From assembly GCA_965224085.1 (NCBI GenBank), contig CBDCYI010000009.1, forward strand, positions 1 through 64,000: a DNA stretch of 64,000 nt, in the 5' to 3' direction. This document shows, piece by piece, positions 3,359 through 32,382 of the stretch. The translations under genes and the position numbers were made by a program. The stretch comes from Candidatus Marinacidobacterales bacterium (GTDB lineage Bacteria > Acidobacteriota > Vicinamibacteria > Marinacidobacterales > SMYC01). The notes under the pieces were generated by a model. That model was not told the DNA's origin and ran no database searches. It worked only from the letters and a program-made list of their open reading frames with translations. Numbering within the stretch: the stretch's first letter is position 1; each line of letters begins with the position of its first letter.

Positions 3359-3811
3359 ATGTCCTTCGCCGTCGGAGGTCGGCCTGGACTCCGGTTCTTG
3401 CTGCCATCGTACTTGGCTGCGATGAGGCAGCGGTACCAACGCAGAAGCGTAGCGGGTGTGGCAACGGACGCAATCTGGGCCAGCGCCTCGCGGCCCAAAG
3501 CCTGGGCCTTGACCGCGAGCCTGCGCCGCTCGTCGTCCGAGAGCCTGAGACGCTTGCCCCGAAGCCCGGCTCGGAGCACACGGTTCTCCTCTTGCAGGTA
3601 GTCGATCACATCCTGCTGCTGGCGGTTGACCCAGCCAGCTAGAACGAGCAGTAGGAATTGCACGTGGTACGTCATCATGGAGCTGAAGATAACACCCTCG
3701 GGCCAGACGATTGTAAAGCCTACGGCCCTTGGTCCGGTCGCAAACACAGACACTAAGCTGCTGATTTATGGCCTATTTCAAAAGGGCCGAGTTTTGGCAC
3801 AGGACGGGGTG

Positions 3812-3968
3812 GGCGTGAAGTCAAAATACTCATGCGACTTCCCGACGGTAGAAACGTAGCAACCCGCCACCGACGCAATAATGTGCTGGAGAAAGAACGC
3901 GTTGTTCGCCTCAAGAAGCTAGGTCAGTCAGGCGACGCGTGACAACCGGTAATCGTAATGGAGCCCCC
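3812..3968 (-). mobile_element. 3' remnant of a lineage-2 integrase element ending in an E-type end (GTGAAGTCAAAATACTCATGCG)
   Basis: 3866-3960 is similar to 5252-5345 (encodes GLHYDYRLSRVA*). Confidence 0.7.
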
Positions 3969-3971
3969 TCT

Positions 3972-4196
3972 CTACAGATCTAGCTCCATTTGCCAATCGG
4001 AGGAGGCGAGACGGTAGGCTGCGTACACCTGGGGAGCGCCGCAGACGTTGCACTCGCCGTGTTCCTCATGGCCCACTCTGCACTCCTGGTCAGCGCCGCA
4101 TACGAGACAAAACGCTGGAATGATGACTCCTCCCCTATCGTGCTCTATGGCGCAGTCGACCCGCTCGGCCGTGATGCTCTTGTGTATCCTCTCCAT
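3972..4196 (-). CDS. Small Zn-finger-like protein (CxxC...CxxC), phage/MGE-type
   Basis: AGGAGG RBS before ATG at 4196; FCLVCG...ECNVCGAPQVY. Confidence 0.6.
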   Translation of the reverse strand: MERIHKSITAERVDCAIEHDRGGVIIPAFCLVCGADQECRVGHEEHGECNVCGAPQVYAAYRLASSDWQMELDL

Positions 4197-4304
4197 ACAG
4201 CACCTCCTAGAGAGCAACGAGTATCGCGGGCGCCACCCGAAGTCAAGCCTAGAGGTATTTCTTGACGGCCCCGAGTTCGGTGGCAGCACCGGCGTAGTAG
4301 TGAG

Positions 4305-4421
4305 CCCATCCTGTGCCAAAACTCGGCTGTGCCTTCTATTTATTCATCCGCGCGCACCGAACTTGCTAAGCTGTTGATTTATGGTCTATTTCGAAAGATC
4401 CGAGTTTTGGCACAGGACGGC
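4305..4421. mobile_element. ~117-bp MITE with A-type inverted ends
   Basis: CCCATCCTGTGCCAAAACTCGG ... CCGAGTTTTGGCACAGGACGG. Confidence 0.8.
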
Positions 4422-4644
4422 ATCCCCTTGCTGGACGTTGTTTTCCCTGCGCGTACGGAGAACCCGAATCGCCGACATCGCCTCCGACACGCCCCAGATC
4501 TGGGGCTCGCCACGGGTCGATGACGATCGAAACGGCCCGGCGCGCCAGTCTTGAGTTCGTTTGTGTTTTTGGACAGGACGGGCTCAACTTCGAGCCAACT
4601 CCACCGGCGTGAGATAGCCGAGGGAGCTGTAAGGTCGAACGGCG

Positions 4645-4993
4645 TCAATGCGGGCAGCCTGAGCCTTGAGTCTCGCTCGTGCCAAGTTCCGCAGTGCGCG
4701 CGTTGGTGATCGTCGGCTCCGCCGCCAATCGCCTCCGCCAGTCCGCCACAACGTCCGGTTCGACACCGAGCGCCAACGCGGCCGCTTCGTCAATGATTTG
4801 CCGGACTTCACACTCCTCGGCCTGCCGCATCGGAAGCAACTCCTCGTCGCAGGTCAGATCAAAAGCGTCCTTCAATGCATCCCAAGCTGGGTTGTCCTGC
4901 TTCGGAATACGGATTTCGCGAAGGTGCGCAAGCTGCCATACGGGATAAGTCAGCTTTCGACCTCGGCGGTTAAGCAGCATTAGTCGCGTCACT
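4645..4993 (-). pseudogene. C-terminal gene fragment, possibly from a restriction-modification/DNA methyltransferase; 5' end cut at an A-type end
   Basis: Protein-like open frame (LMLLNRRGRKLTYP...RQIIDEAAALALG...LAAEPTI) starts at the element boundary. Confidence 0.4.
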
Positions 4994-5312
4994 GTCGTCC
5001 TGTGCCAAAACTCGGCCCTTTTCAAATAGACCGGAAATCAGCAGCTTAGACGCCCTTGGAATCCGTACAGAATCCAGGGTGTTTCGCGCCGCAGGGTTGG
5101 CTTCCGACCCCTGGGCTGCGGGTGGCGGGCGACAGGCCTTGTGCTCCGCAAAAAAGAAGATCGCGTATTGACGGGCAGACAGCCATGGGAGTTGAGGTCC
5201 CGCGAACTCGTGTTCGCCTCGGTGTAAGTTCTGCACTCTGTCGCTGCTGGGCCACCGACGCAATAACGTGCTTGAGAAAGAACGCGTTGTTCCCCGCGAG
5301 AAGCTAGGTCCG

Positions 5313-6948
5313 TCAGGCGACGCGTGACAACCGGTAATCGTGATGAAGCCCACCAAGGACCGACCTCGAGGCAACGGCGCGCTGGGCGGGTAATTGATGC
5401 CGGTGCTGGTCCGGTTTCATCGGAAGCTCGATACAGGGGGTGGGAAGGCCTGGCCCGAGCGATGAATGCGGTCTCGCCCGATTGTAGTAGTCACGCCATT
5501 CGGTCAAGAGTCGGCGGAGATGTTCCTCTGACAGCGGTATCAGAAAATCCAAGCACTCCCGGCGTCTGGTGCCGATGAGTCTCTCACAATAGGCATTCGC
5601 CTGCGGTGCTCTGCGCGGCGTCCTCAACGGCCGAACACCCATCCCCCGGACGGAGCGGCGGAGGTCTGCTGAGAACTTGTTATCGCGGTCCACGATGACG
5701 AATCGATAGTCGTGCTCGCACCCAATCGCCTCCAGGAACTGTTGCAGCGTCCACTCCGCGGTCGGATGCGCCGTCACGTTGAAGTGAAGCATCTTGCGGG
5801 TGCCGATTTCCATGATGACGAAGACGTAAAGCACACGAAAGCTGACGGTGACTACGTTGAAAAAATCCGCAGCGACGACCGCTTTTGCGTGATTCCGCAC
5901 GAATGTCGCCCAGCGATGCGATGCATTGCGCCGGTCCGGGCTGCCGTCATCTCGAATGGGTATGTACTTCCGAACGGTGCGCGGCGAGACGCAGACGCCA
6001 AGCTTGACGAGCAGCTCGTTGGCGATCCTCTCTTCGCCCCACGTGATGTTCGCGACCGCCATTTCAGCGATTAGTGTCTCTTCCGGGGATGGTCGAAACC
6101 CCTCGCCTTTAGGCGAAGAGAAGATCGTGGTATTGTGGTCGCGTGCGTCACTACAGGCACGGAGCGCACACGAAAACGGACCTAAAAGCGCACATCGTTT
6201 GGATACCGAAATATCGTAAAAAGGTTTTGATCGGTCCAGTAGCGGTTCGTGTGCGCGATCTGATTCGTCAGATCGCGATGGAACATGAGCTGCACATAAT
6301 CTCGGGTAAGGTTGCACGCGACCACGTCCACGTGTTCGTATCCTACCGACCACACCAGGACCTTGAGTACGATCGTGCAGTGGCTAAAAGGAATAAGCTC
6401 CCGAGTACTCCTTCAGGAGTTTGCTCACCTGAGGAAGAAGTTTTGGGGCCGGCACTTCTGGGCCCGAGGATATCTGGCGGTGAGTTCAGGAAGCATAACG
6501 GACGAGATGGTAAAGGAGTACATAGACTCCCAGGATGGCGAGCCTCTTCACGACGACAGTCAATTTCCAATTGACAGCCCTTGAAGCCACCGCCTTCTAG
6601 GCGGTGGTTGTTCACTTTTTTCAGCTCCTCTGGCAGCGTTGGACGTCCTTTTGGCCTAGACTTCCAACGCCAGAACAGCCGAAACCCTTTCCTGTGCCAC
6701 AGAACGAGCGTATCGGGCTTGACCACGATAAGGGCTTCCTTCCAGTCGAATATCCTCGCGAGAGTCGCCATCGTGACCCGTGTGGCGTTATTCGTGCGCC
6801 GAGGCGCCTGCTTACGCTCGACAAAGAACGTAAGCTGCTTCCGAAGGAAAAGATTCTCTGCGGCGAGGGCGCTGCGCGAGCGGCATAGGTTGCGAGCGAA
6901 CGCGATGGCGTCCAGAACAATAGACCGGATATTCGAAAACAGTCGCAC
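5313..6948 (-). pseudogene. rve/integrase-core transposase (lineage 2) interrupted by IS200
   Basis: Removing 6075-6615 restores ...PTLPEELKK|LIAEMAVAN... in frame; motifs ADFF, DRDNKF, ANAYCERLIG, GGLHHDY. Confidence 0.9.
6075..6615 (+). mobile_element. tnpA: IS200-type element (tnpA only), copy 1; tnpA 6143-6584 is frameshifted by one extra T near 6363
   Basis: HUH motif DHVH and catalytic Tyr (VKEYI); subterminal hairpins; inserted after TTAG, ends in TCAC, no TSD. Confidence 0.92.
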
Positions 6949-7116
6949 GAGCGAGCCTCTCCACGTTCCTAAGACGCCGGTGGCGTCGTCGGGTCGACCG
7001 GCACGAAGCAGCCGAGCATGGCAGGTCTAAACCGCGCAATCAACGCCGGATCGACTTTTTTTTGCGGAGCACAGCCTCTTTTCTGCTGCCGCACGGCCTG
7101 CTCAGCGCCCGCTCCC

Positions 7117-7499
7117 CTATTTGGCGCGCGTCGGCACCCGAAGGCGATGTCCGATTCGGATTGTGGTCTTACGCCCCATGTTGTTGGCGGCCTGGATCGC
7201 TCGGACGCTCGTGCCGTACTTGCTCGCGAGGCCCAAGAGGGTGTCGCCGCGCGACACCTTGTGGGTGGCGTAGGTTGGATTGGGCGGCGATGGTCTCACC
7301 TTGAGCACCGTACCGGGCCGAAGCGTCTCGTCCCAGAACAAGTTGTTGTCCCGGATGATCCGCCACGGCTGAGACTTCATCACCTTGGCCACCGACCTCA
7401 GGGTGTCACCCGGCTTCGTCTCGTACTCGTTGTACTTTCCCTTCCAGGTCAGCGGAATCTGTAGCACTTGGTCGGCCGGAAGTGTCTGCAGGCGCCAGA
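7117..7499 (-). pseudogene. Two-LysM-domain C-terminal fragment, truncated at an A-type end
   Basis: YETKPGDTLRSVAK and HKVSRGDTLLGLASKYGTSVRAIQAANN. Confidence 0.8.
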
Positions 7500-7500
7500 C

Positions 7501-7740
7501 CCCGTCCTGTGCCAAAACTCGGCCTTTTGAAACAGACCATAATATCAGCAGCTTAGTGTCTGTGTTTGCGACCGGGTCAAGAGCCGTGCTTCGGCTACCC
7601 CGTCCTGTGCCAAAACTCTGTCCTTTTGAAATAGACCATAAATCAGCAGCTTAGTGTCTGTGTTTGCGACCGAGCCAAGGGCCGTGGGCTTTACAATCGT
7701 CTGGCCCAAGGGTGTAATCTTCAGATCCATGATGACGTAC
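7501..7740 (+). repeat. Two tandem A+B1 left ends of the lineage-1 element; the second includes the first codons MMTY
   Basis: Near-identical to the reverse complement of 3667-3808. Confidence 0.85.
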
Positions 7741-7805
7741 TACTCGTCGTCGTGAAACGGCCAATCCTGGCAGGTCTAAACTCGGAATGGCACCGAAGTC
7801 AGGAC

Positions 7806-7996
7806 CGCGTCGTGTCCAAAAATACAAACGAACTCAAGACCCGCGTCGCAAGCCGGACGGAACGGATGGTCCGGAGGAAGGCTGTGCTCGGGCCCGCCTA
7901 TCGCAGAGCCAATGCCGCGTCGGCGGGTCTCCACGAATTTCGAAAACACCTCTAGGATTCCAGCTTTCGGCTCCGTTCGCGGTTTTGGACACGACG
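7806..7996. mobile_element. MITE with D-type inverted ends
   Basis: CGTCGTGTCCAAAA ... TTTTGGACACGACG. Confidence 0.7.
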
Positions 7997-8200
7997 CTGA
8001 TTAGGCATAGTGGCCTCCTATTAACTCCTCTGTTAGAATAGTTTAGGGGAGGCAGCCCGAGGGTGAGCGGCACTAAGGAAACGAGCGCCAAGGCGATCGT
8101 CGAGAAACTGACCTAGGCCGACAGACCGGAGATTAATCGCGTTCGGTGCGCGCGGATGAATAAATAGAAGGCACAGCCGAGTTTTGGCACAGGACGCGGT

Positions 8201-8252
8201 CAAACCTCTGCGAGTCACCCCGGCAGAGCCGGGGGTTTACCTGTGATAATTA
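8201..8252. repeat. Orphan IS200/IS605-like end hairpin
   Basis: CCCCGGCAGAGCCGGGGGTTTAC stem-loop resembling Y1-transposon subterminal hairpins. Confidence 0.5.
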
Positions 8253-8446
8253 CAGCCAAAATAGCGCTCGCGACCTTCGCCGCGCGCAAATGGAGCGTAA
8301 GCGATTTTTTTGCAAAGGGATACGTACACATCACCAACAGCAAACAGCGCAAGCACCGTGCCATGGCGGCATTCTTGCACACGTGAGCGTGGTTTGCCTA
8401 TAGTGCTGTCGCGTGCTCCATACCGCGCTAGGAGGAAAACATCTAA

Positions 8447-9163
8447 ATGAGCAAAGATAACTGGAGTGATCTTGCGTCGGCGCTCAACTCCAAGCTAAAA
8501 CTGCAAGCCACACCTATTGCCATCACCTTTTCCAACGACTTCCAAGGAGTTCCGCCATTCGAGGGACCGACCCCGGCGCCGATGCCCGATGGGCGGACTG
8601 GCAAGGTCCCTGCGGGCTGCGTTTTCTGGATGAAGGCAACGGACCGTACGTTCAGCACCGTCGCCGAAGATCACGGCAATTGCAGTGTCGGAAGCTTGAC
8701 GCACGGCCTCAAGACAATGGACGAAGTAGCCGGCAATAGCGACGTGGCTGCGCTCCTAGATAGCGGATGGGTCACGATGGATGTCGTCCCGCAAATCCCG
8801 GTGGTCAAGACCAAGTACCGCTACATTACCTACGGACCGCTCGTGGAGAGCTCGGATCCGGACGTGGTCGTCGTTCGCCTCAACGCAACACAACTTATGG
8901 TCCTTCATGACGCAATCCCCGGTCTTCGCTTCGAGGGAAAACCCCAGTGTCACATCGTCGCCATCGCCAAGGAGCAAGGTGAAATCGCGGCCAGTGTCGG
9001 GTGCATGCTAAGCCGGGTCCGTACAGGGATGTCACCCAGCGAAGTGACGTGCGCGATCCCGGCCTCCAAGCTGGGCGACGTCATCGAGGCGCTCGATTCC
9101 ACTTGCGTGGCGGACGGCAAGGTGGCGACGTACGCTGCAGAAGATGGGAAGCGATTCGCCTAG
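8447..9163 (+). CDS. DUF169-family protein
   Basis: 238 aa; GCVFW, DHGNCSVG, DPDVVVV, PQCH, SVGCMLSR; AGGAGG RBS. Confidence 0.75.
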   Translation: MSKDNWSDLASALNSKLKLQATPIAITFSNDFQGVPPFEGPTPAPMPDGRTGKVPAGCVFWMKATDRTFSTVAEDHGNCSVGSLTHGLKTMDEVAGNSDVAALLDSGWVTMDVVPQIPVVKTKYRYITYGPLVESSDPDVVVVRLNATQLMVLHDAIPGLRFEGKPQCHIVAIAKEQGEIAASVGCMLSRVRTGMSPSEVTCAIPASKLGDVIEALDSTCVADGKVATYAAEDGKRFA

Positions 9164-9367
9164 GACCCTAAGTCGGTCAAACCCCGTGAGGTCAAAATAC
9201 TCATGCGCGTCGCGTCCAAAAATACAAACGAACTCAAGACCGGCTTGCCGGGACGTTTCGGAATAGACGTGTCTACGCTTGGTTCGCAGCACTTGAATGA
9301 CCGGGTTGATTTCCGGGATTGCAGGCTAGCGTAATCTCTAAACAGACAGCGAGGAGAGGAGAGACAA

Positions 9368-9889
9368 ATGCAGCCACTTTACGATCCCGAGGGTGTTCGG
9401 CCCATGTGGGAGGAGCTTGCCCAATGCGGGGTCGAGCCCGTGCAAACAAGAGAGAACGTCGACGAGGCCTTGAAGAGGCCTGGGACAACGCTCGTGGTGG
9501 TGAACTCGGTTTGTGGATGTGCTGCCGGCTCGGCGCGCCCGGGTGTGACTCGCGCCCTGCAACACAGCACAATTCCCGATCACCTCACGACGGTCTTCGC
9601 CGGCGTGGACCGTGAGGCCACGGAGCGCGCCAGAGAGCACATGGTCGGCGTTGCTCCGAGCTCACCTTCGGTGGCTCTTTTCAAAGACGGCGAGCTCGTG
9701 CACATGCTTGAGCGACGGCATATAGAGATGATGAACGACGAGATGGTGGCGCAGAACCTGACCGAGGCTTTCGACAAGTACTGCTCTCGACAGGGACCGT
9801 CCGTCCTCAGAGAAGAGTACGAGAAGGTGGTGCACGCCCGGCAGTGTGGCTCCTCGGTGCCGCTGTTCGATCCCCTCTCAAACCACTAG
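9368..9889 (+). CDS. BrxA/BrxB-family bacilliredoxin (YphP/YqiW)
   Basis: VNSVCGCAAGSARP, TVFAGVD, PSSPSVALFKDG motifs. Confidence 0.9.
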   Translation: MQPLYDPEGVRPMWEELAQCGVEPVQTRENVDEALKRPGTTLVVVNSVCGCAAGSARPGVTRALQHSTIPDHLTTVFAGVDREATERAREHMVGVAPSSPSVALFKDGELVHMLERRHIEMMNDEMVAQNLTEAFDKYCSRQGPSVLREEYEKVVHARQCGSSVPLFDPLSNH

Positions 9890-10076
9890 CAGGCGCTCTT
9901 CTCCCCGGCAAAGTCCAGTCCATCGGGATTGTCTACGCGTTGGCGCTGCTGCGAACTGCCCGCTAGCGGTGCGGGTAAAGCTCCGTTCGGAACCGGAGAC
10001 GCGCCGGCGTCGGCTCTACTCAGGGGTAGAGGTGTAAGCTGGTGCGAAGTCCGGCAGCCGTTCCGAGCGGACCGGC

Positions 10077-10919
10077 TCAAGCAGCGGCGTGTCGAGTGTA
10101 ATAATGATGGAGACCACCGACCTTTGGAATGGCTCTCACTTTGCCCATCGCCGGTGACTCTACCCGGCGAGGCTCAGGCGCGTCCTTCTCAAGCGACAAA
10201 TGAGTCCGGCACGAATGATAGTAGTCGACGTATTTGCGTAGGATTCGCTTCAGGTGCCGCTCGTCGAGGACGATCACGTGGTCGAGACACTCACGTCGAA
10301 TGGAGCCGATTATCCTTTCGACAAATGGATTCTGCCACGGGGAGCGCGGTGCGGTAAGGACCTGCTCGATCCCGAGACCGTCGACGCGACTATCGAAGTA
10401 CGCTCCGTAGGTCTGGTCTCGATCCCGTACCAGGTACCGAGGCGCCGTGTCCCATGGAAAAGCATCGACCATTTGCTGCGCCGTCCACTCGGCAGAAGGA
10501 TGCTCGGTGACATTGAAATGAACGATACGGCGACGGTCGTGGCGAAGGACGATGAAGATGAACAGAACTCTGAAGGTTGCGGTCGGCAAAGTGAAAAAGT
10601 CGAGCGACACCAAGTCCTTTGCATGATTATCAAGAAAGCTCCGCCAAGTAGGGGACGGTGGCGTGCGATGGCGAACCATATACTTGGAGACGGCGGCCTG
10701 GGAAATGGAGATGCTCAGCTTTGCCAGCTCGCCATGCACGCGGGGAGCTCCCCAGAGAGGGTTGGCCCTGCTCATGTTCCGTATCAGCTCACGTATTTCG
10801 GGAGCGACGCCTGGTCGTCCGGGCCTACGCCGTCGGCTCTTCCAAGTCCAATATCGTCTGAACCCACAACGGTGCCAGCGGATGACCGTCTCAGGTTTCA
10901 CGATGACGAGGACGCTCTC
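10077..10919 (-). pseudogene. rve/integrase-core transposase (lineage 3), N-terminus removed at an A-type end
   Basis: VKPETVIRWHR, NPLWGAPRVHGEL, DFF, RDRD, SPWQNPFVER, GGLHHYY. Confidence 0.88.
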
Positions 10920-10953
10920 CCCGTCCTGTGCCAAAACTCGACCCATTTGAAAT

Positions 10954-11399
10954 GGGGCTTATATCCATGACTAGACAAGCCCCTATTTGGATTCACGAAT
11001 CAGAAAAAAGCCCTCATAGATGAGCAAGGAGACCGCAAACGGCACCATAACCAGCCACAAGGTCCCGCTCTCCAGTCCATTGCCCGCCATCTTCGCCAGG
11101 TAATTGTAGGGTATAAATGAACCAGCGCCCCCACCAGGACCGTCACCTCGAGCCGAGGCCATTCGGTTTCGCCCCGCATCGAACCGAGGATTTTCTCGAT
11201 GAAAACGAGTACGAGGGCGACGATTGCGAAAGGGTCGATCCAATCGAATATGGGCTTGGCCGCAGCGGGATTGACGGCGTAGAAGAAGTTGTTGAGCGTC
11301 AAAACGAAAGCTACGATGAGCATGAAGCATCCTTTTTAGTGACCGCATATTTCATCTTCTCCTATTCTTCTGTCGTGTCTAGTCATGGATATAAGCCCC
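10954..11399. mobile_element. Non-autonomous cassette with 24-bp perfect IRs and 8-bp TSD carrying a membrane-protein gene
   Basis: GGGGCTTATATCCATGACTAGACA at 10954-10977 and its inverse at 11376-11399; TTTGAAAT at 10946-10953 and 11400-11407. Confidence 0.9.
10983..11355 (-). CDS. Small multi-TM hypothetical protein split by apparent frameshifts
   Basis: AGGAG RBS and ATG at ~11355; hydrophobic segments spread over ORFs 11000-11323 and 10983-11348. Confidence 0.55.
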
Positions 11400-11546
11400 T
11401 TTGAAATAGACCACAAATCAGCAGCTTAGACGCCCTTGGAATCCGCCGACCCTTGGGCTGCGTGGCGAGCTACGGGCAGTGAACTTCGAACCCGGAAGTC
11501 CCTCATTAGACTGGACTTTATCGAGCAGAAGAGCGAACGTTCGGTG

Positions 11547-11978
11547 ATGCCGCAGGATACAGGGGTTGGCCGGAACGTCGTTCTGGACGGTTTGGACTTC
11601 GCCAGCTTACGGCGGGTCTGGGAGCAGACCTTTGGGGCTGCTCCTCCAAGCTCGCTCTCGCGTGTTTTCCTGCGCCGCGTTCTCTTGCACGAACGCCAGT
11701 GCCGGACCCATGGCTGGCTTTCGGCCGCAACCCGGCGCGCTCTGGCTGCCATGGCGAACGAGACACCAAGCTCCGGCGCTCCCGCAGGGTCCGTTTCTGC
11801 CGGCACCCATCTCTTCCGCGAGTGGAATGGCCGGACCTACCAGGTCGAGGTACTCGACAACGGCTATCGGTTCGATGGCAAAACCTATCCGTCCCTCACG
11901 GCCATCGCAAAGCGAATCACCGACACCCACTGGTCAGGACCACGCTTTTTCGGTCTGACGCCCCCGCGCAAGGCCTAA
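11547..11978 (+). CDS. DUF2924-domain protein
   Basis: GTHLFREWNG...YRFDGKTYPSLTAIAKRITDTHWSGPRFFGL; directly precedes a serine recombinase. Confidence 0.9.
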   Translation: MPQDTGVGRNVVLDGLDFASLRRVWEQTFGAAPPSSLSRVFLRRVLLHERQCRTHGWLSAATRRALAAMANETPSSGAPAGSVSAGTHLFREWNGRTYQVEVLDNGYRFDGKTYPSLTAIAKRITDTHWSGPRFFGLTPPRKA

Positions 11979-11979
11979 C

Positions 11980-13008
11980 ATGAAGAAAATCCGCTCTGCC
12001 ATCTATACGCGAAAGAGTGCGGAAGAGGGTCTCGAACAGGATTTCAACTCCCTCGATGCGCAGCGAGAAGCCTGCGCCGCGTATGTCGCGAGCCAGAAAG
12101 CGGAGGGCTGGGTGCTGCTGCCAACCGTCTACGAGGACGCGGGGCTCTCGGGAGGAACCCTGGAGCGCCCGGGCCTGCAGCGCTTGCTCGCCGACATCAA
12201 CGCCGGTCTCGTCGAGCAGATTGTGGTCTACAAGGTCGACCGGCTGACCCGTTCCCTCTCCGACTTTGCAAAGCTCGTCGAGCGGCTCGAGGCGGCCGGC
12301 GCGGTTTTCGTCTCGGTGACTCAGTCCTTCAACACCGCGACCAGCATGGGACGACTGACGCTGCATATGCTGCTGTCCTTCGCACAATTCGAACGCGAGG
12401 TCACGGCCGAGCGGATCCGCGATAAGGTCGCTGCCTCCAAGCGCAAGGGACTATGGATGGGCGGCCGCGTACCGCTCGGCTATGAGAAGGACGAGCGCAC
12501 GCTGCGCATCAACGAGGCTGAGGCCGAAACGGTCCGGACGCTCTATGCGCTGTACCGGAAGCACGGAACCCTCCGGCAGGTGAAGGCCGAGGCGGACCAT
12601 CTGGGACTGCGCACCAAGCAACGCTTCGCGGCGGATGGAACCCGGACAGGCGGGCTGCCGTTCCGTCGCGGACACCTCCACTGCCTGCTGACCAATCCTC
12701 TCTACGCCGGCCGCATCCGGCACCAGAGGCGTGTCTACGAGGGCCAGCATCCATCGATCATTGCTCCGGAGCTCTGGGACGCGGTCCAAACGCAGCTGCG
12801 GGCAGGGGCTGCCAAACCAAGGAGACGCACGACGAAGGGCCGTGCAGCCCGTTCCCCACTGGCAGGCAAGCTCTTCGACGAGACCGGCGACCGGCTGACG
12901 CCGAGCCACACCAAAAAGAAAAACGGGCAACGGCTCCGCTACTACGTCTCCCGGCGCCTCATCCAGCACAGTGGCCAAAAGGACCTCTCCGGCTGGCGAC
13001 TGCCCGCC
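11980..13008 (+). pseudogene. Large serine recombinase truncated at its junction with IS6
   Basis: AIYTRKS, FNSLDAQREAC, YKVDRLTRS, SFAQFERE; frame runs into IS6 sequence at ~13008. Confidence 0.9.
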
Positions 13009-13634
13009 AGGTGTCGTCCGACGCGGAAGAGGTTTTGGACAAGTCCATGAACGGACAAGAATCGCTGGGCTTGACCCGGAGATTTGAACCGTCGCATTTG
13101 CCGTTCACGTTGCCGCGTCGGCTCGTGCGAGACCTCGGCTCTATTGTTTTGGTACTGGTCGGTGCAGTGGACGACGGATGGCATGACCTCGCGGTGAGCG
13201 GCGCTGTAGCTTCTCAGCTTGTCGGTGACGAGCCGCCAGGGTGGCCGGCCCTGCCCCTTCAGCAGCTTACGAAAGAAGCGTTTAGCGGCTCGCCGAGCGC
13301 GTCGAGGCTGGACGAGGATATCGATGACGTCGCCATCTTGGTCCACCGCACGCCAGAGATACTGCCGTTGACCCTGGATGGTTACAAACACCTCGTCCAG
13401 GTGCCACGTATCGCCGAGGCGACCTTGCCGTCGCTTCAGCCCGCGAGCGTATTCTGGACCGAACTTGATGCACCAAAGTCGGATCGCTTCATACGAGACG
13501 GTGATCCCCCGCTGGGCAAGGAGGTCCTCTACATCTCGAAAGCTCAAACAAAAGCGATGGTAGAGCCAAACGGCGTGGCTGATGATCTCCGGTGGAAATC
13601 GATATCCGCGGTAGCTCGGCGACTTGCTGTTCAT
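13008..13634 (-). pseudogene. IS6-family transposase, 3'-truncated
   Basis: YRFPPEIISHAVWLY, WHLDEVF, LWRAVDQDG, VTDKLRSY, NNRAEVSH. Confidence 0.92.
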
Positions 13635-14929: not shown

Positions 14930-15142
14930 TCGCACCGGCGTGGAGCCCACGAACTTGTAATCTAATAGACGCGCTCAACTATCCCAGCTGGAATAGAAAA
15001 CGCAATTTGGGGTACGCGCAGGACTCCCAGCCAAACTTGACAACGGGCTCAGTCGCACCAACGTTAAGCCGACCTCTGAGCCGGTGCCACCTTCACAGAC
15101 TACCGCGTTTCATTCATTCGGGGTGGCCGTCAGGCCGTGGAA
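14930..15142 (-). ncRNA. Candidate IS110 bridge-RNA region (5' non-coding end)
   Basis: ~215 nt non-coding, conserved in copy 2; contains TTGTCAAGTT, identical to the inferred target half-site. Confidence 0.6.
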
Positions 15143-15644
15143 AACTTGACAGCAATGGCACCGCCCGCGTGGGCGGAGGTCATCGGGGAGTGACCGAAAT
15201 CGTTCGTTCACTCGAAAGTACCTTTGGTCGTCTTCATGTAGGACGTTTTGAGGGTCGAGTCGGTTGTCCATCATCATTATTAACTGGACCGTCTGCGGAG
15301 TCATCTTCGTTTCCTCCGTAAAACTCCGCTGGATGAATTCGAGGTTTGGCCAATTCGAATTCCACTATTCGCCTTCTCCTCAGGCGCGATCTAGGCATTG
15401 AGCGTCTTCTCATTGTCTGCGCGATTAAGTGAAAAAACGTCCCGATAAGCCCCAAAATCGCCCCAAATTGCACGCTAATGGCCTGTTTAGCTCTGTTTCT
15501 GATCGTTTCCAGCCAAGAATCGGAAGCTCCACTCAAGCCTCCCGACTGCGATAGTCGGAAAGATGTTCCCGTCGACGAACATTCGCTGATGAGACGTAAA
15601 GCCTTTTGCGGCAATGAGTAACGGTCGGAGCCGCCTCCGGAGGG

Positions 15645-15952: not shown

Positions 15953-16099
15953 CCCGTCTTGTGCCAAAACTCGGCCCTTTTGAAATAGACCATAAATCAG
16001 CAGCTTAGTGTCTGTGTTTGCGACCGGACCAAGGACCCATCGATACGCGATCTTCTTTTTTTGCGGATCACAACGAGGCATGGCATACTCTGCAGGCGT

Positions 16100-16685: not shown

Positions 16686-16745
16686 CCCGTCGTGTCCAAA
16701 AACACAAACTCTATTTCAAAAGAGCCTAGTTTTGGCACAGGCGGG
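16686..16745. mobile_element. 60-bp hybrid MITE (D-type left end, A-type right end)
   Basis: CCCGTCGTGTCCAAAAACACAAAC...AGTTTTGGCACAGGCGGG. Confidence 0.7.
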
Positions 16746-17019
16746 CTGGAAAAACAGCCCGATCAGCCCCGAAATGCCCGTGAGGTCAAAATACTCATGC
16801 GGCTTCCCGATGGTAGAAACGTAGCATCCCGTCCTGTGCCAAAACTCGGCCCTTTTGAAATAGACCATAAATCAGCAGCTTAGACGCCCTTGGAATCCGC
16901 GCAGAATCCAGGGTATTTCTCGTCGCAGAGTTGGCTTCCGACTCCTGGGCTGCGGGTGGCGGGCGACAGGCCTACCGGGGGTACGCACGGCTGGCTCAAA
17001 TCGGCTGCGGGGCGAGCTG

Positions 17020-17186
17020 CAGGTGACCTCGTATTTGCTGAACGCACCTTTCGGATATCGTTGGTGGAACGACCTTGGAACGCCGCTGCTTTCGAGGAAC
17101 AAATGGAAACTGTTCCAGTACCAGAAGCAAGCGCCGGCAAGCTTCACCATTTGTTCTTTGACGTTGAAGCTGATCAGTTTCTCCAA
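17020..17186 (-). pseudogene. N-terminal gene fragment immediately after attC, possibly a restriction endonuclease
   Basis: AT-richer ORF MEKLISFNVKEQMVKLAGACFWYWNSFHLFLESSGVP, then degenerates. Confidence 0.4.
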
Positions 17187-19330: not shown

Positions 19331-19406
19331 GGTACTTTCGAGTGAACGAACGATTTCGGTCACTCCCCGATGACCTCCGCCCACGCGGGCGGTGCCATTG
19401 CTGTCA

Positions 19407-20860: not shown

Positions 20861-21090
20861 TGGAGATTCAGGGTTTAGTCCGACATCTGCTGGTAGCCGC
20901 TTCCGGCTCCCTTCGCGTTTTCAGACACGACGGGGTCCAGGCGCGCCTGTCTTGAGTTCGTTTGTATTCTTGGACACGACGCGAAGAGCGACAGGACTAC
21001 GCCGGCCGTTGCGCGCTGATGTGTGCAACGCCGCAAAAACAGGACGACGCACAACCCGACCTAAACGCGAGGACTGATACTGAACGCGCG

Positions 21091-21287: not shown

Positions 21288-21738
21288 TGTGCCTTCTATT
21301 TATTCATCCGCGCGCACCGAACTTGACTAGTCTCCGGTCTGCCGGGACCATGCCGGCATGATTTCGTCGTTTGTTCGCGCTCTCGTCTCTAGAGGACCTA
21401 GAACCGAGGCCGGGGCTACCGCGGCGCAGCGGGCTAGCACGTTCTGGTCCAGGTGCGGCCCGGGCCTGGACCCAGGTTTCCGCTCGGGAGCGTGGCATCC
21501 CGTCGTGTCCAAAAATACAAACGAACTCTAAGACCCGCACGCCGGGCTGTCGCCGAGTTCATCTATCATCATTAAGAAGAGCGCAACCATCAAGGGCTTG
21601 GCGGCGCGTTTGTGTTTTTGGACACGACGGGGTTCACGACACGACCTTCTTTCAGGCGTCCAGGAGATTGAAATTGCCGTATAGAAAATCTTACTAAAGC
21701 CAATTAAAATCCCGGCTCGAACGACCACCCGTCGATAA
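21287..21738 (+). repeat. ~450-bp block duplicated at 31577-32027; contains the D-D MITE 21499-21631
   Basis: Near-identical sequence by direct comparison. Confidence 0.92.
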
Positions 21739-26211: not shown

Positions 26212-26442
26212 CTAGATCAACGCGCGCCTCAGAATCCGAAGGAGGACGAGCAGAATCAACGGCGAGAAGTCCACCCCAGCCGCCGTTGGCACCAGTCTGC
26301 GAATCGGTGTCAGAGCCGGCTCGGTCAACATCCTGGCGATGCGAACCACCTGGTTGCTTGGCGGGAGCTGAAGCCAGCTGAGGACTACAGCGACGAAGAC
26401 GACAACGGAGTAGTAGTCAATCAGTTTGGCAATCAATAGCAT
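26212..26442 (-). CDS. YggT-family membrane protein
   Basis: VLSW...LTEPALTPIRRLVP...GVDFSPLI. Confidence 0.85.
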   Translation of the reverse strand: MLLIAKLIDYYSVVVFVAVVLSWLQLPPSNQVVRIARMLTEPALTPIRRLVPTAAGVDFSPLILLVLLRILRRALI

Positions 26443-26869
26443 GACTGGACCGGAGTTTACCACGCGGGTTGTCCCTTCCATAAACTCGAGCTGCATGAGA
26501 TTGGCGAACTGCCTCCAACCAGGATGCTTTGGTCGCGTCGTGTCCAAAAACACAAACGCGCTCAAGACCTGCGCTCACGATCACGCCGCAGACCCGGGAA
26601 TAGAGAACGGCACGCCTGTGAATCGGTGCGCCTGGTAACTCGGCCGCCCATCGGTGGTAGGCACGGCTCCAAGTAGTGACCGGGGCACACCCGCTCCGCC
26701 GCGGTAGCCCTGGACTCGATTCTGGACCTCTCGGGCGACCTCTTTTGCGCCGCCGCATGGTCCGGTCAGCGCCTACTCCTTTATTTGGCGCAAACTTGGC
26801 ACTCGAAAATCGAGATTAGAGACGAAAATCGAGAATGAGGCGCTTTCAGCCCTTCTAGCGGTATTGTCA

Positions 26870-27009
26870 AGTTTTCCACGGCCTGACGGCCACCCCGAAT
26901 GAATGAAACGCGGTGGTCTCTGGAGGTGGCACCGGCTCAACACGACGCCTGAGGGAGCTCGGTTTTGACGTCACTGCCCCCAAACGCTACACCCTGAGTT
27001 TCTTATTAG
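26870..27009 (+). mobile_element. Miniature IS110 (both ends retained, interior deleted)
   Basis: AGTTTTCCACGGCC...ACCGGCTCA joined to ACGACGCCT...CCCTGAGTTTCTTATTAG. Confidence 0.85.
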
Positions 27010-27549
27010 TGTCTCTTCCGGGGATGGTCGAAACCCCTCGCCTTTAGGCGAAGAGAAGATCGTGGTATTGTGGTCGCGTGCGTCACTACAGGCACGGAGC
27101 GCACACGAAAACGGACCTAAAAGCGCACATCGTTTGGATACCGAAATATCGTAAAAAGGTTTTGATCGGTCCAGTAGCGGTTCGTGTGCGCGATCTGATT
27201 CGTCAGATCGCGATGGAACATGAGCTGCACATAATCTCGGGTAAGGTTGCACGCGACCACGTCCACGTGTTCGTATCCTACCGACCACACCAGGACCTGA
27301 GTACGATCGTGCAGTGGCTAAAAGGAATAAGCTCCCGAGTACTCCTTCAGGAGTTTGCTCACCTGAGGAAGAAGTTTTGGGGCCGGCACTTCTGGGCCCG
27401 AGGATATCTGGCGGTGAGTTCAGGAAGCATAACGGACGAGATGGTAAAGGAGTACATAGACTCCCAGGATGGCGAGCCTCTTCACGACGACAGTCAATTT
27501 CCAATTGACAGCCCTTGAAGCCACCGCCTTCTAGGCGGTGGTTGTTCAC
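27010..27549 (+). mobile_element. IS200-type element, copy 2 (intact)
   Basis: Identical to 6075-6615 except for one base; inserted after TTAG. Confidence 0.93.
27078..27518 (+). CDS. tnpA: IS200/IS605 Y1 transposase TnpA
   Basis: HIVWIPKYR, DHVH, LKGISSR, FWARGY, KEYI. Confidence 0.95.
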   Translation: MRHYRHGAHTKTDLKAHIVWIPKYRKKVLIGPVAVRVRDLIRQIAMEHELHIISGKVARDHVHVFVSYRPHQDLSTIVQWLKGISSRVLLQEFAHLRKKFWGRHFWARGYLAVSSGSITDEMVKEYIDSQDGEPLHDDSQFPIDSP

Positions 27550-28430: not shown

Positions 28431-28564
28431 TACCGTGACCCTCGTTGTTAACCTAGGGAGTCGGCTTCCTCACCTATCTCAAGGGGCGAAAAGCCGGGCG
28501 GCGTTATCCGGTGAAGGAGTTTCAAACGAGTTGGTTCTCGTTAGACAACCAGCGCCATACGTAT

Positions 28565-29218: not shown

Positions 29219-29268
29219 ATTTTTTGCGGAGTACACCGGGCTAGCGTTTAGAATGAGATTCCCTTTCG

Positions 29269-31194
29269 TTATTGTTCCGCGTGCCTGCCAAAGTGCTTCT
29301 GGTAGAGGAAGGAAACAAACATCAAAACCAGTCCCAGCACGAGGAACGATAGGATGCGATAACCCCGTTCCAAAAAGGATATATCAATCAGGAACGCCTT
29401 CAGCACAACCACACCAATGAGAGCCAGCCCCTGCCGGCGCAAGGCAGCGGAACCACGCTGCACTCCCAATACAATGTGTACGGATGAGTAAAGAATCCAC
29501 AACAGCGAGAGTGCCAGTTGTTGGGATAGCCGCGGCTCAATGGTAGTCGTTTCCAACCGGCCAAACGCCTCCCAGATTTCCATGGAAAGGGCCGAGAGGA
29601 GTAACACATTTGCGGCAAGACCGACAGCTTTGAAGAAGCGCTCTTCGTCGCTCGAAAGTGTACCCTCACCTTCATGGTGTTCCCTTGCCAGAAAGAAGGC
29701 CACAGCGAAACAGGCCGCCACAACCACAAAGGTGGCAAAACGAGGATTGGCGAGGAAGCGGTCGGCTTGAATCGGAAGGGCCCACAGTCGAATTGCCACC
29801 AGGACGAAAAGCGAAAGGCCGAACCATCGCAGCAGGTAATGTCTGATGCGTAGGCCGGTCCACACCAGTACGGTTCCTTCAATCGCCCACGCCATCGTGA
29901 CCCATTTGCCCTCGAACTGGGTGAATACAGCGAGGGTTATCAGCGTGAGCCCCAGTCCCGTGTAAAGCAATACCGTCGGAGAAGTCATCCCTCTCTCATT
30001 CTGTGCGGCCAACCAGGCTGCACTCCAGTGGATCGCAACCAACACCAACAGCCAGAAAGTAAGAGACCCGCGGTAATGGTCGTAGAGCATGGCGTCAAGT
30101 GCCGCCATGTACCAGGTCACGTTTGCCAGCACGACGACCATCTGTGCGGCGCGCAATTTCGGTCCCTGGCGTGCTTGCAAAAGTGGAATGATTCCGAACT
30201 CGGTGAAGAAAGCGGTCGCAAAGAAGAAAGTCACAAGAAGCTTTTCCGAGGTGTAGTATTGGTCGTACCAGGTGGTGAAATAACCGATTGTCCAGACCAG
30301 ACAGACAATTTCCAGAGCGCGCCAGGTGCGCCACCGGGACAGCACCAGCAGGCCCGCGTTGAGGACTACCAGATAGCTGAACAACGTACGCTGTGAGTCT
30401 TCTCCAGTACTCAACAACGCGGGAGTCAGAAAGCCACCCAGCATCGCCAGAAATGCGGCCGACTGCGAGTTGCGCCGAATGGCCACCGTAAGCATTCCCG
30501 CAGTAACCGCCACCATTGCGATAAACGCCACGCCTTGCGGAACCAGATGGTAGAACCACCAGGCGGCATAGACAGCGAGGTAGAGCACGCCTGTGGCCAG
30601 CCCCGTAATCCCCTCGGAAAAATAGCGGTAGCCACGGCTGAGCAGCCGATGGCTGTACCAGAGCAGTAACCCGCCTATCAGCAGCAGGATGAGCACGCGC
30701 CCCACCGGCCCCACCCACTGGTTATCAAAGGCAAATTTTACAAAAAACGCCACCGAGAGCAGTAAAGCGACGATCGCGATCCAATTGAGCCAGCGCCCGG
30801 CAAAACGGGTTTCCATGTCCAGACCTCCGGCACCAGGTTTGATCTGAACCGCATCGGCCGGAGAGTGTGTTGCTTGAGTTGACGGCGGCGGAACTTGTAG
30901 TGAGGGGCAGAGCGAAGGCTCGACTGCCATGGCAGTGCCTTCCGACTTCGGCGCAGCAAGATGTTCGGCTGGGGGCCCCTCGGGCTCAGTCGTTTTCAGT
31001 ACTTCCTGGAGGCGACGACTCAGTTCAGAGACTTGCCTCTCCAAAGCGGACACACGGCCCACAACGCTTTCGTTGCGGCCGGACCGACGCCGTCCCTCCA
31101 GCCGCGTAAGGCGCACAAAAGCAACCACGCCTAGAATCGGAGCAACCAAGAAAAAGAGAACTACTAGAATAATGAAAGGAGCAGCAACGCCCAT
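29269..31194 (-). CDS. DUF2339-family multi-pass membrane protein
   Basis: E..FAGRWLNWI, AFDNQWVGPVGR, GGFLTP, K.FLIDIS.LERGYRILSF. Confidence 0.85.
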   Translation of the reverse strand: MGVAAPFIILVVLFFLVAPILGVVAFVRLTRLEGRRRSGRNESVVGRVSALERQVSELSRRLQEVLKTTEPEGPPAEHLAAPKSEGTAMAVEPSLCPSLQVPPPSTQATHSPADAVQIKPGAGGLDMETRFAGRWLNWIAIVALLLSVAFFVKFAFDNQWVGPVGRVLILLLIGGLLLWYSHRLLSRGYRYFSEGITGLATGVLYLAVYAAWWFYHLVPQGVAFIAMVAVTAGMLTVAIRRNSQSAAFLAMLGGFLTPALLSTGEDSQRTLFSYLVVLNAGLLVLSRWRTWRALEIVCLVWTIGYFTTWYDQYYTSEKLLVTFFFATAFFTEFGIIPLLQARQGPKLRAAQMVVVLANVTWYMAALDAMLYDHYRGSLTFWLLVLVAIHWSAAWLAAQNERGMTSPTVLLYTGLGLTLITLAVFTQFEGKWVTMAWAIEGTVLVWTGLRIRHYLLRWFGLSLFVLVAIRLWALPIQADRFLANPRFATFVVVAACFAVAFFLAREHHEGEGTLSSDEERFFKAVGLAANVLLLSALSMEIWEAFGRLETTTIEPRLSQQLALSLLWILYSSVHIVLGVQRGSAALRRQGLALIGVVVLKAFLIDISFLERGYRILSFLVLGLVLMFVSFLYQKHFGRHAEQ

Positions 31195-31285
31195 GAACTT
31201 AATTTAGGCTTGAGAAGCTCACGCCATTTTTTCGTGCGCGGTCTTTTCTGCTGTTGTGGCCCATCGTCCGGATGCGTACCTAATC

Positions 31286-31408
31286 ACGTGAAAAAAGAAT
31301 GGCGCTTCTCCGCGTCGTCGTGATGGTATCAGATCAGGCGGCGACCTGGCCTCGAGCAAGAACGTCGTCGAGGTGTTGGTAAGCATCGATGCGTCGTAGT
31401 CTGATCTG
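31286..31408 (-). mobile_element. 3' remnant of a diverged IS256-like element
   Basis: Encodes QIRLRRIDAYQHLDDVLARGQVAA*, compare QIQLRRIDGYQ...EVAA*; IR-like CGTGAAAAAAGAATGGCG. Confidence 0.7.
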
Positions 31409-32026
31409 AGTTGAGTAGGCAGCGTCTACGGTTCTCGATCATTGCCCTTCGGTGAGGGCAGCCGCAAAAAAGGCGTCGGTCTTGGCGGCCATGATGAAAT
31501 CGTTGCGGTGTAGGCCTCGTATCTTGTGGGTCCACCAAGAGACCGTGACGCGACCCCGTCCTGTGCCAAAACTCGGCTGTGCCTTCTATTTATTCATCCG
31601 CGCGCACCGAACTTGACTAGTCTCCGGTCTGCCGGGACCATGCCGGCATGATTTCGTCATTTGTTCGCGCTCTCGTCTCTAGAGGACCTAGAACCGAGGC
31701 CGGGGCTACCGCGGCGCAGCGGGCTAGCACGTTCTGGTCCAGGTGCGGCCCGGGCCTGGACCCAGGTTTCCGCTCGGGAGCGTGGCATCCCGTCGTGTCC
31801 AAAAATACAAACGAACTCTAAGACCCGCACGCCGGGCTGTCGCCGAGTTCATCTATCATCATTAAGAAGAGCGCAACCATCAAGGGCTTGGCGACGCGTT
31901 TGTGTTTTTGGACACGACAGGGTTCACGACACGACCTTCTTTCAGGCGTCCAGGAGATTGAAATTGCCGTATAGAAAATCTTACTAAAGCCAATTAAAAT
32001 CCCGGCTCGAACGACCACCCGTCGAT

Positions 32027-32217
32027 ACCCTAATCGCAAAATCTTCGAAGCACGAAAACGCGAAACAGCCGCACTGGGCGCAGGCGAGAAGCTCATGCTG
32101 GGGCACCCGCTCGCCGCCACTATAGGTGATTCTGCACGGTGTATGCAGAACCTGGAAAAGGTGCTATTCACGGGGCCAAAGACCTCAGACACGGTGACGT
32201 TTATTTGCGATTAGGGT
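32027..32217. mobile_element. 191-bp MITE with 14-bp IRs starting ACCC (IS982-like)
   Basis: ACCCTAATCGCAAA at 32027-32040 and TTTGCGATTAGGGT at 32204-32217. Confidence 0.65.
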
Positions 32218-32382
32218 TAAAAAGGGCCGCGTTTTGGCACAGGACGGGATCGCGAAACACTGACGCCGCGTGATCGCCGGGGCGCTAGTTCCCGCGAATG
32301 CTGCGATAACTGAAAAACGCGCGGATCAAATCGGAAAATATGGGTTCCTGACAGGTGCGGGCGCACGTCGGCGAGTTCTGTG

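Follow-up and report, generated by a model that had tools for sequence, protein, structure and literature searches.

The window is the whole 64,000-nucleotide stretch analysed here, and its first 32.2 kb are a graveyard of mobile elements, those of A, D and E type among them. An unclassified IS family, related to IS481 and IS3 and with a single-ORF rve DDE transposase, is represented here by three sibling lineages, whose terminal inverted repeats are the A, D and E motifs. In the window, A matched 13 times with at most 3 mismatches, D 11 times with at most 2 and E 3 times with at most 3, against expectations of 0.00 (100 shuffles), 0.01 and 0, respectively. With up to 4 mismatches, the degenerate ends A 16746 (minus) and D 7998 (minus) are also matched, together with a D end at 20934 (minus) absent from the initial annotation. 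The sum of 29–30 ends, versus virtually none in shuffles, agrees with the about 28 claimed there. The last end is at 32,248, and none was found in 32,249–64,000, just as had been claimed for everything past 32.3 kb; the next one along the contig is at 86,136. The parts are as follows.

1447..2000, minus: A-type IS fragment, reference positions 512–1065 (blastn)
3358..3808, minus: A-type IS fragment, reference positions 3–451 of 1432 bp; tip 3806, flank dinucleotide 3807–3808 (blastn of the reference copy and motif match)
3812..3870, plus: E-type end stub, 7 nt from the A tip, spacer gggtggg
4305..4421, no strand: A-A unit of 117 bp, two A ends face to face, no direct repeat at its flanks
4420..4582, minus: D-type end fragment, tip 4580 (motif match)
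4994..6140, plus: A-type end of the second A lineage, inner sequence ...TTAGACGCCCTTGG; adjoins ORF 4645–5025 (minus) at tip 4994
7501..7598, plus: A end fragment of 98 bp; adjoins LysM ORF 7120–7515 (minus), with a second A end directly after it, at 7599
7599..7805, plus: A end fragment (motif match)
7806..7998, no strand: D-D unit of 193 bp, right arm degenerate (motif matches)
8073..8198, minus: A end, variant with inner sequence GGCTGTGCCTTCTATTT (motif match)
9183..9205, plus: E end stub of 21 nt, cut by the following D end (motif match)
9206..9290, plus: D end, joined after ...CATGCG of the E stub (motif match)
10080..10946, minus: truncated sibling rve transposase ORF, 289 aa, cut at A tip 10920–10922
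10920..11430, plus: A end, further variant, about 510 bp in common with C9:506616
15953..16040, plus: A end fragment (motif match)
16686..16746, no strand: D-A hybrid unit of 61 bp, a D end (24 nt) fused to a degenerate A end (37 nt)
16777..16827, plus: E end stub, cut by the following A end (motif match)
16828..17020, plus: A end of the second A lineage (motif match)
20885..20983, minus: two D ends in the same direction, outer coordinates 20934 and 20983
21499..21631, no strand: D-D unit of 133 bp, first copy in the window, with 4 copies in the source genome
26065..26195, plus: A end joined to an IS3-like transposase C-terminal gene piece left of the tip; the junction recurs in relatives G002, G012 and G015
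26534..26600, plus: D end; adjoins YGGT ORF 26215–26565 (minus)
31555..31788, plus: A end, GGCTGTGCC variant (motif match)
31789..31921, no strand: D-D unit of 133 bp, second copy in the window (motif matches)
32200..32248, minus: last A end, the right border of the repeat-rich island

The two A pieces at 1447..2000 and 3358..3808 are separated by an IS256-family element (transposase ORF 2086–3294; Transposase_mut, E 2e-88), and 60 bp of the A element is absent between them. The A element at 4994..6140 has a truncated rve_3 transposase ORF (5316–6353, minus), and a frameshifted IS200-like Y1 gene (6143–6584) overlaps its far side. The Y1 genes in the window belong to another repeat, which has ends of its own. 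Up to 15954, the flank of the A end at 15953 matches C9:500487–501163 at 99% identity, and that locus continues uninterrupted. The 61-bp hybrid unit sits just after a single-copy Yip1 ORF (16061–16627), and the junction at 21500 is occupied in G002 by a full-length A-type IS.

The ends are clustered in islands, often within sibling copies, at the breakpoints of gene fragments. As initially described, genes are cut at the tips; LysM, rve, the 4645 ORF, YGGT and IS3-like pieces adjoin them. The paired short units are the A-A of 117 bp, the D-D of 193 bp, the D-A of 61 bp and the D-D of 133 bp in two copies, and no direct repeats flank them or any of the 38 paired ends listed. This upholds the description of units of 60–190 bp without target-site duplications. 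The 133-bp unit is multi-copy and the other short units of the window are single, while an E-E unit of about 110 bp is found at 4 distinct loci in 3 genomes. Some short units are internally deleted derivatives of the A, D and E elements. Calling the units MITEs is apt for some, which are multi-copy, and not for the rest.

The source genome holds one intact A-type copy of 1,432 bp, with A ends on both sides, inverted repeats of about 100 bp and a 356-aa transposase (rve_3/HTH_32). Its remaining ends are in fragments or short units, while related Marinacidobacterales genomes contain dozens of full-length copies at 95–98% identity. D-D and E-E elements bear their own related transposase genes. 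The ends had been described as modular but, rather than being exchangeable parts of a single element, belong to three sibling lineages, each with its own transposase gene.

The transposase is one ORF of 356–381 aa spanning HTH_32/HTH_21 and rve_3, and contains ATDLF, HDRD and AERF, which we take to be its D, D and E motifs. NCBIfam IS481 (NF033577) is the best-scoring family with 99.3 bits against a cut-off of 224, and IS3 (NF033516) scores 84.3 bits against 160. The rve-transposase subfamily initially proposed is supported. Homologues with 55–66% identity and the same CGT tips are present in MAGs labelled Myxococcota, Planctomycetota, Verrucomicrobiota, Gemmatimonadota, Acidobacteriota and others. 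In public annotation, the family appears only under the names 'integrase core domain-containing protein' and 'transposase InsO family'.

The true tips are 5′-CGT..(T/G)GT..AAAA and ...ACG-3′, and the preceding CC, of consensus ACCC, is flank. The flank dinucleotide is that of the uninterrupted paralogue at 33 of 39 distinct junctions, and at 16 of the 19 junctions where it is not CC. The orthologous uninterrupted gene in G002 gives the same element boundary, and CGT-NN-(T/G)GT tips occur in 16 of 41 distant relatives from other phyla. The CC before CGT is target-derived, so part of CCCGT is target sequence. The initial annotation had claimed non-canonical CCCGT termini, to be refuted if CCCGT proved to be target. 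The outermost bases are indeed not TG..CA, but the first two C's are flank; CGT is element.

Target-site duplication was also denied initially, and this stands on 49 distinct full-length copies plus the short units. The best direct repeats of the 49 are distributed as in shuffled pairs (tested to 30 bp). Orthologous empty sites are scarce in the repeat-rich islands that contain nearly all the copies examined. An 11-nt direct repeat, imperfect at one position, is present in a single copy, L144. Among the 98 flanks, the consensus toward the tip is ACCC, with A at −4 in 72, C at −3 in 64, C at −2 in 92 and C at −1 in 83. Left and right flanks are similar in this motif, and the two flanks of one copy are statistically independent of each other. 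No signal was found at −5 to −32 of the 98 flanks, so a palindromic duplication up to 30 bp is excluded. Targets resemble the inner tip modestly, with 81 matches out of 195 against 64 out of 195 in the control. The data establish this likeness and the 4-nt ACCC preference; that the family targets its own neighbourhood, as initially proposed, is only inferred.

The junctions are one-sided. No collinear far flank within 8 kb was found in 199 filled/empty comparisons covering 70 ends. Reciprocal junctions were flagged at 7 of 65 ends, which are one true pair, implying a 6-bp overlap (GCATCC), and trivial cases. A multi-copy recombinase element has truncated copies in 5 genomes, and in none of these did the same genome contain the complementary halves. 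Abutted end pairs number only 2 in 21 genomes, and neither a circle junction nor a branched form was seen as a transposition intermediate. Because of the near-repeat of L144 and the 6-bp overlap pair, ordinary insertion may occur occasionally.

On balance, we slightly favour a one-ended reaction in which an IS tip becomes joined, without duplication, to the flank of an end that is real or only resembles one. Two-ended insertion followed by scrambling does not fit the missing duplications, the independent ACCC flanks and the missing target halves. Junctions would be made singly, one end per event. The 3′ end of the IS tip (...GGACG) would be joined 5′ of GGGT on the target strand, in register with the would-be tip of the look-alike end, and one target side would be retained and the other lost. 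Most likely, the transposase would move one IS end alone to a position flanking another IS end, real or pseudo, and the branched product would then be processed by the host. Alternatively, intramolecular events would lead to deletion or inversion of the DNA in between. We infer both the enzyme step and what became of the lost halves; the reaction would be of the type described for the targeted insertion of IS911 and the targeted or intramolecular transposition of IS26. One-ended joining accounts for the junctions, not for the origin of whole new copies.

An ordinary two-ended insertion with duplication, erased later by homologous recombination among copies and by deletions, is unlikely. Tens to hundreds of ends per genome would allow it, missing duplications are usually ascribed to inter-copy recombination and adjacent deletions (PMC11708052), and the near-repeat of L144 can be counted in its favour. 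So can a D copy that G000 and G003 have in common with its left context while their sequences differ from the tip outward, a flank replacement that recombination between copies explains equally well. However, ACCC on both sides would need a GGGT...ACCC duplication, and there is no GGGT signal to 30–32 nt. Right-hand target halves should also be as frequent as left-hand ones, but one pair was found among 65 ends, and multi-copy targets identical over 80 bp run on into unrelated sequence, not GGGT. It is quite unlikely that the transposase only nicks or breaks at the tip and that host microhomology repair joins the tip to a resected flank, leaving adjacent deletions. The modest excess of target-tip matches would suit such repair, as would the truncated genes that adjoin tips with their remainder absent and some ragged junctions with target bases in place of the first tip bases (GCACTC/GTGTCC, GGAGTC/CTGTG and CCAGTCT/TGTG). 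Yet the majority of tips are complete and exactly in register, and deletion alone could hardly yield full-length copies that have two new flanks. The motif of A at −4 and C at −3 to −1 is also external to the conserved element, so simple homology to that element does not account for it.

Two other explanations concern the boundary and the assembly. A TGT begins at element base 6 (positions 6–8), and IS481 and IS3 members end with TGT or TG (PMC10045372). The real termini could then be canonical TGT...ACA five bases inward, with CCCGTCC as a specific target or a palindromic target stem like a REP hairpin. This is very improbable, as agreement with the uninterrupted paralogues and the orthologue stops after the two bases that precede CGT, the distant relatives keep CGT while the next two bases vary, and CCCGTCC at the two ends is in inverted rather than direct orientation. 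That the mosaic is an assembly artefact is barely credible. The window does begin at a contig end, another contig end carries a duplicate of its first ~11 kb and short-read contigs break at every repeat, but identical junctions exist in independent genomes (26065 in G002, G012 and G015; 21500 in G002) and the pieces are far shorter than long reads.

Among known systems, the elements resemble the IS481 family in the single-ORF rve DDE transposase with an N-terminal helix-turn-helix and no programmed frameshift, the size of ~1.2–1.4 kb, the terminal inverted repeats and the TGT near the tip. They differ from it in the score below cut-off, in tips of CGT...ACG instead of TGT...ACA and in inverted repeats ~100 bp long. 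Duplications of IS481 and the related IS1202 group are given as 4–15 bp, mostly 6 bp, or 15–29 bp (PMC10045372); none of either range is found in the 49 copies, bar the 11-nt near-repeat. The IS3 family shares the rve catalytic core, whereas the present element has one long ORF rather than a frameshifted orfAB, a score below that cut-off too, termini other than TG...CA and no 3–5 bp duplication seen.

IS911 without OrfA is reported to target end-like sequences by a one-end transfer with a host-processed branched product, as cited in an IS6 review (PMC7986276), and the present element likewise has no separate OrfA. Unlike in IS911, there is no head-to-head abutment: the incoming tip and the look-alike tip share one register, and the outer flank is retained. 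IS26 and other IS6 members also have copies without flanking repeats and gene fragments ending at IS tips in mosaic regions. Sections of the same review (PMC7986276) describe the intramolecular loss of flanking repeats and, for both IS26 and IS911, a model in which a single cleaved IS end moves to the flank of a target IS end. The IS6 transposase is, however, of the unrelated DDE_Tnp_IS240 domain and those of A, D and E of the rve_3 type; the present targets include non-IS sequences merely ending in ACCC, and the copy-in mode of IS26 makes 8-bp duplications. An unrelated IS6 transposase gene lies in the window at 12945–13634.

The short units are MITE-like in being non-coding, 61–193 bp long and bounded by the inverted ends of an autonomous element, with multi-copy cases (E-E of ~110 bp and D-D of 133 bp). 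They differ in lacking target-site duplications, and several are unique hybrids (D-A and A-A) that resemble nested joins rather than amplified families. A REP/RAYT or IS200/IS605-type single-strand element, with a Y1 HUH transposase, hairpin ends and insertion 3′ of a fixed tetranucleotide at one end only, was rejected, as the ends flank rve genes and ACCC is at both ends, inverted.

Textbooks give target-site duplication as the footprint of DDE transposition, and tools for IS annotation set boundaries by it. Here, an IS481/IS3-like family is without this footprint in 49 recent copies from several genomes and has a flank motif and one-sided junctions instead; the practical gain is the correct boundaries (CGT...ACG) for annotation. 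A wider reading is tentative and rather doubtful: a widespread rve branch would move mainly without duplication, each end being transferred alone to the ACCC/CGT.. scissile position of a real or look-alike end, swapping flanks and deleting or reshuffling the neighbouring DNA rather than simply inserting. If so, targeted strand exchange of the IS911/IS26 type would be the default mode of a whole IS family. Targeted strand transfer has so far been studied as a side reaction of IS911 and IS26; if the junctions are due to transposase action, a natural IS family can use targeted end-to-end strand transfer as its main route. This, if true, would explain the gene loss and reshuffling in the very IS-rich genomes of these sponge-associated Acidobacteriota.

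The outer flank of each A-, D- or E-type end was compared with uninterrupted paralogues (minimum identity 90% over 40 bp or more). In 33 of 39 distinct junctions, the dinucleotide preceding CGT is that of the uninterrupted copy; among the 19 junctions where it is not CC, it is exactly the uninterrupted dinucleotide in 16. An orthologous chromosomal gene in the related genome G002 reads ...CCTGGCACCC followed by CATCTCC..., and its counterpart in the present genome (G000) reads ...CCTGGCACC followed by CGTCTTGTCCAAAAA, with the remainder of the gene absent. Judged from these shared dinucleotides and this orthologue, the leading CC belongs to the flank and the elements start with CGTCC (A), CGTCG or CGTCC (D) or CGTGA (E) and end with ...ACG. 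Hence, of the CCCGT termini in the initial annotation, the CGT part stands and the leading CC does not. In a survey of 41 loci of homologues at 55-66% protein identity, CGT-NN-(T/G)GT-[GC]C..AAAA tips bound the homologous elements at 16, in MAGs of several other phyla, and a convincing repeat pair was not found at the rest.

The longest extensions of A ends led to a complete A element at C5:1887072-1888503 (1,432 bp including two flank bases on each side), which has A ends on both sides and a single ORF of 356-381 aa. Its inverted repeats are about 100 bp long (positions 3-104 versus 1329-1432, 89-96% match). The protein carries HTH_32/HTH_21 and rve_3 domains. Among NCBIfam families it scores highest against IS481, with 99 bits (cut-off 224), and next against IS3, with 84 bits (cut-off 160). 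As both scores are below their cut-offs, the A transposase falls in the IS481/IS3 superfamily and in neither curated family. The A element has no separate OrfA-type regulator. All the remaining A matches in G000 are fragments broken at differing internal positions, and the window holds two matching the reference copy.

A-type fragments in the window
3358-3806: A-type fragment, match to the reference copy
1447-2000: A-type fragment, match to the reference copy

The D-D and E-E elements elsewhere in G000 carry related transposase genes of their own, in frameshifted or truncated form. Thus A, D and E are sibling lineages and not the modules that had been proposed. The A transposase homologues number thousands, with all 8,000 scored candidates significant, and are named 'transposase InsO family protein' or 'putative transposase' at their sources. 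The closest genomes are Candidatus Marinacidobacterales MAGs; the element is matched in 11 of 21 related genomes, and in seven of these the matches number 38-66 per genome, with many full-length copies at 95-98% among them. We also sought a named IS in annotated plasmids, where the 101 matching records are all below 60% identity (best 42%) and annotated 'integrase core domain-containing protein'. That the element is an unclassified IS481/IS3-like member of a widespread family is secure.

The enrichment of the ends in the window holds up in a motif scan. The A motif has 13 matches at up to 3 mismatches (shuffle expectation 0.00), the D motif 11 at up to 2 (0.01) and the E motif 3 at up to 3 (0.00). 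Allowing 4 mismatches adds the degenerate sites 16746(-) and 7998(-), both already annotated, and a D end at 20934(-) that had not been listed. No A, D or E end lies past 32,248 in the window even so, just as had been noted. Sequence with a second copy in the genome at 85% identity or more makes up 77% of positions 1-32,248 versus 16% of 32,249-64,000. The short paired units are also real, with lengths of 117, 193, 61, 133 and 133 bp, and the ORF and tip positions agree that gene pieces stop at the tips. As to their description as MITEs, it fits the E-E unit of about 110 bp, found at 4 loci across 3 genomes, and the 133-bp D-D unit, of which there are 4 copies, whereas the other short units are unique hybrids, unlike multi-copy MITEs.

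The genome comprises 6.87 Mb in 12 contigs, and the window corresponds to C9:1-64000. A loose genome-wide scan yields 202 distinct ends (A 104, D 67, E 31), some of whose 4-mismatch matches are false, such as an IS200-type end at C11:1198272. They cluster in a handful of islands and at contig ends. Window 1-11000 is duplicated at 99.1-100% at the end of C5 (about 2,284,000-2,296,000) with every A, D and E end included, and both copies lie at contig ends. For the solitary F-type ends (CGTAGTGTGCC...) on C11, a partner was not found within 2.6 kb. Abutted ends, which could indicate circles or tandem dimers, number zero in G000 by exact pattern; a single A-E pair lies 7 nt apart. Of 21 genomes, only 2 show an A-A abutment, one with a 12-nt and the other with a 24-nt spacer. 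At one of these loci (L160, G017:C20:28834-28871) the A tips face each other over the 12-nt spacer GGGTCACAACCC, of the form GGGT...ACCC; nowhere else were the two half-motifs seen so close together.

The absence of target duplications, first noted by eye, extends to full-length copies. Six relatives provided 53 loci whose A-type copies were putatively complete; 50 proved to be so, and 49 are distinct. Among these 49, the short exact direct repeats across the boundaries are distributed as in shuffled left/right pairs, and no excess over shuffling appears when mismatched repeats as long as 30 nt are allowed or when the boundaries are shifted up to 14 nt outward. The sole outlier, locus L144, has an 11-nt direct repeat with one mismatch.

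The flanks nevertheless carry a motif, identical at both ends when read toward the tip. Of 98 flanks, 72 have A at position -4, while C occupies positions -3, -2 and -1 in 64, 92 and 83 flanks, respectively; positions -5 to -32 give no signal. The genome-wide scan of outside flanks suggested by the initial annotation returns the same ACCC-type motif from 130 distinct G000 flanks. An inverted target duplication was rejected, as the flanks on either side of a copy, compared as inverted copies, resemble each other no more than random or shuffled pairs do. A long palindromic duplication or a deletion between half-sites was rejected as well, with no GGGT upstream and none consistent downstream in the uninterrupted copies read. 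Multi-copy targets identical over 80 bp run on past ACCC with unrelated bases, not GGGT, so that blunt insertion between ACCC and GGGT is excluded.

The junctions are overwhelmingly one-sided. An initial naive pass for empty sites in G000 gave only 10 matches. In the subsequent batch of 199 comparisons for 70 ends, the far flank never continues the interrupted sequence, and collinear empty sites were rejected because the 3 matches are each a separate complete target copy. A missing target half beside any IS end was flagged for 7 of 65 ends: two are an E end abutting an A end (window copy and duplicate), one is ambiguous, and four (two junctions with their duplicates) amount to one genuine reciprocal pair, which overlaps by 6 bp (GCATCC). 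Likewise, truncated copies of a 401-bp serine-recombinase gene piece end at many points in five relatives, with no complementary pairs within a genome.

The comparison of filled and empty sites in relatives, also suggested earlier, failed for the full-length copies and succeeded for solitary D ends, which supplied two useful orthologous cases. Full-length copies are flanked by sequence that is itself a mosaic of further repeats, which left paralogous comparison as the only option for them. At window 21500, G000 has a D end where G002 has a full-length A element. The 26065 junction recurs in G002, G015 and, at the other IS end, G012. One D copy with its left context is common to G000 and G003 (about 98-99%) and fully different from the tip outward. 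This D copy in G003 (locus L169, G003:C1:8806300-8808000) has an extra internal insertion of about 160 bp relative to G000, with CTAG at its start and end. The inner target positions +1 to +5 show a slight likeness to the tip (81/195 matches versus 64/195 in the control), and some junctions are patchy, for example target CCAGTCT versus filled CCCGTCT followed by TGTG.

Other repeats share the window. Window 34018-35248 has an exact opposite-strand copy at C9:156583-157813 and a 99% identical counterpart in G003; hence the mosaic of duplicated pieces continues past the last A end, at a breakpoint without an A, D or E motif. Window 36000-41000 is a very high-copy repeat unrelated to these ends (other copies at 85% identity or more: median 67, up to 112 in the genome). 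IS200-like elements with a Y1 transposase lie at 6143-6612 (frameshifted) and 27078-27546. Their common end, ...GCGGTGGTTGTT followed by CACTT, is found about 40 times genome-wide with different following sequence each time, a pattern typical of a separate, active single-strand IS. Window 11436-13047 holds a DUF2924 gene and a large serine recombinase gene; the 401-bp piece of the latter has 39-40 matches at 95-99% in each of G002 and G010, so this unit is itself a highly amplified mobile element. A repeat of about 80-100 bp (15123-15222, 19329-19432 and, at locus L009, 927-1008) is present in dozens per related genome at 94-100% identity. A single-copy, cassette-like Yip1-domain ORF (16061-16627) sits between an A end fragment and the 61-bp D-A unit.

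Four explanations compete with one-ended joining of IS tips as the account of the mosaic. Misassembly is refuted by the same junctions being shared among independent genomes. Part of the stretch is present in 19 of the 21 public runs listed, and several of these carry the label sponge metagenome; in four of them the short-read contigs end at each repeat and the joints are repeat-mediated alternatives. Conventional TGT...ACA termini with CCCGTCC as the target are likewise refuted, here by the empty sites. Ordinary insertion followed by scrambling is disfavoured. PMC11708052 reports IS movements without duplications at large rearrangements and names recombination and adjacent deletion as the usual causes of missing duplications. 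However, a staggered insertion with ACCC on the left and GGGT on the right needs a GGGT...ACCC duplication and thus GGGT at a fixed upstream distance, which the flank motif lacks, and the reciprocal junctions are missing save for the one real pair among 65 ends. Break repair at microhomology may have made a ragged minority of the junctions.

We favour one-ended transfer by the transposase, with genuine or look-alike ends as targets, a reasoned account with about an even chance of being right. A single IS tip would become attached to a new flank, exactly where a tip would lie, and one target side would be lost. Related reactions appear in PMC7986276: replicative transposition within one molecule leads to deletion or inversion of neighbouring DNA with loss of the flanking repeats, and in the 'targeted' reaction, proposed for IS26 and IS911, a single cleaved IS end is joined to the flank of a second IS end, after which the host resolves the branched product. 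By titles cited there, IS911 OrfA turns targeting away from IR-like sequences. The one-ended transfer leaves unexplained the two new independent flanks of complete copies and the fate of the lost halves.

The element thus resembles IS26 and IS911 partly, in its behaviour, and is not a member of the IS6 family. IS481 and IS3 are its relatives, though their curated model scores are not reached. By the values in PMC10045372, their termini have TGT or TG at the outermost base and their duplications are 3-15 bp, whereas the present tips are CGT...ACG and no duplication is detected in 49 copies. A literature search on MITEs and IS481 gave nothing relevant. Literature and plasmid annotation name no such element; these searches were not aimed at the tip motif or the missing duplications, so a prior description is possible. 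Within that scope, the family defined by CGT...ACG tips, inverted repeats of about 100 bp, an ACCC flank preference and no detectable duplications may be new.
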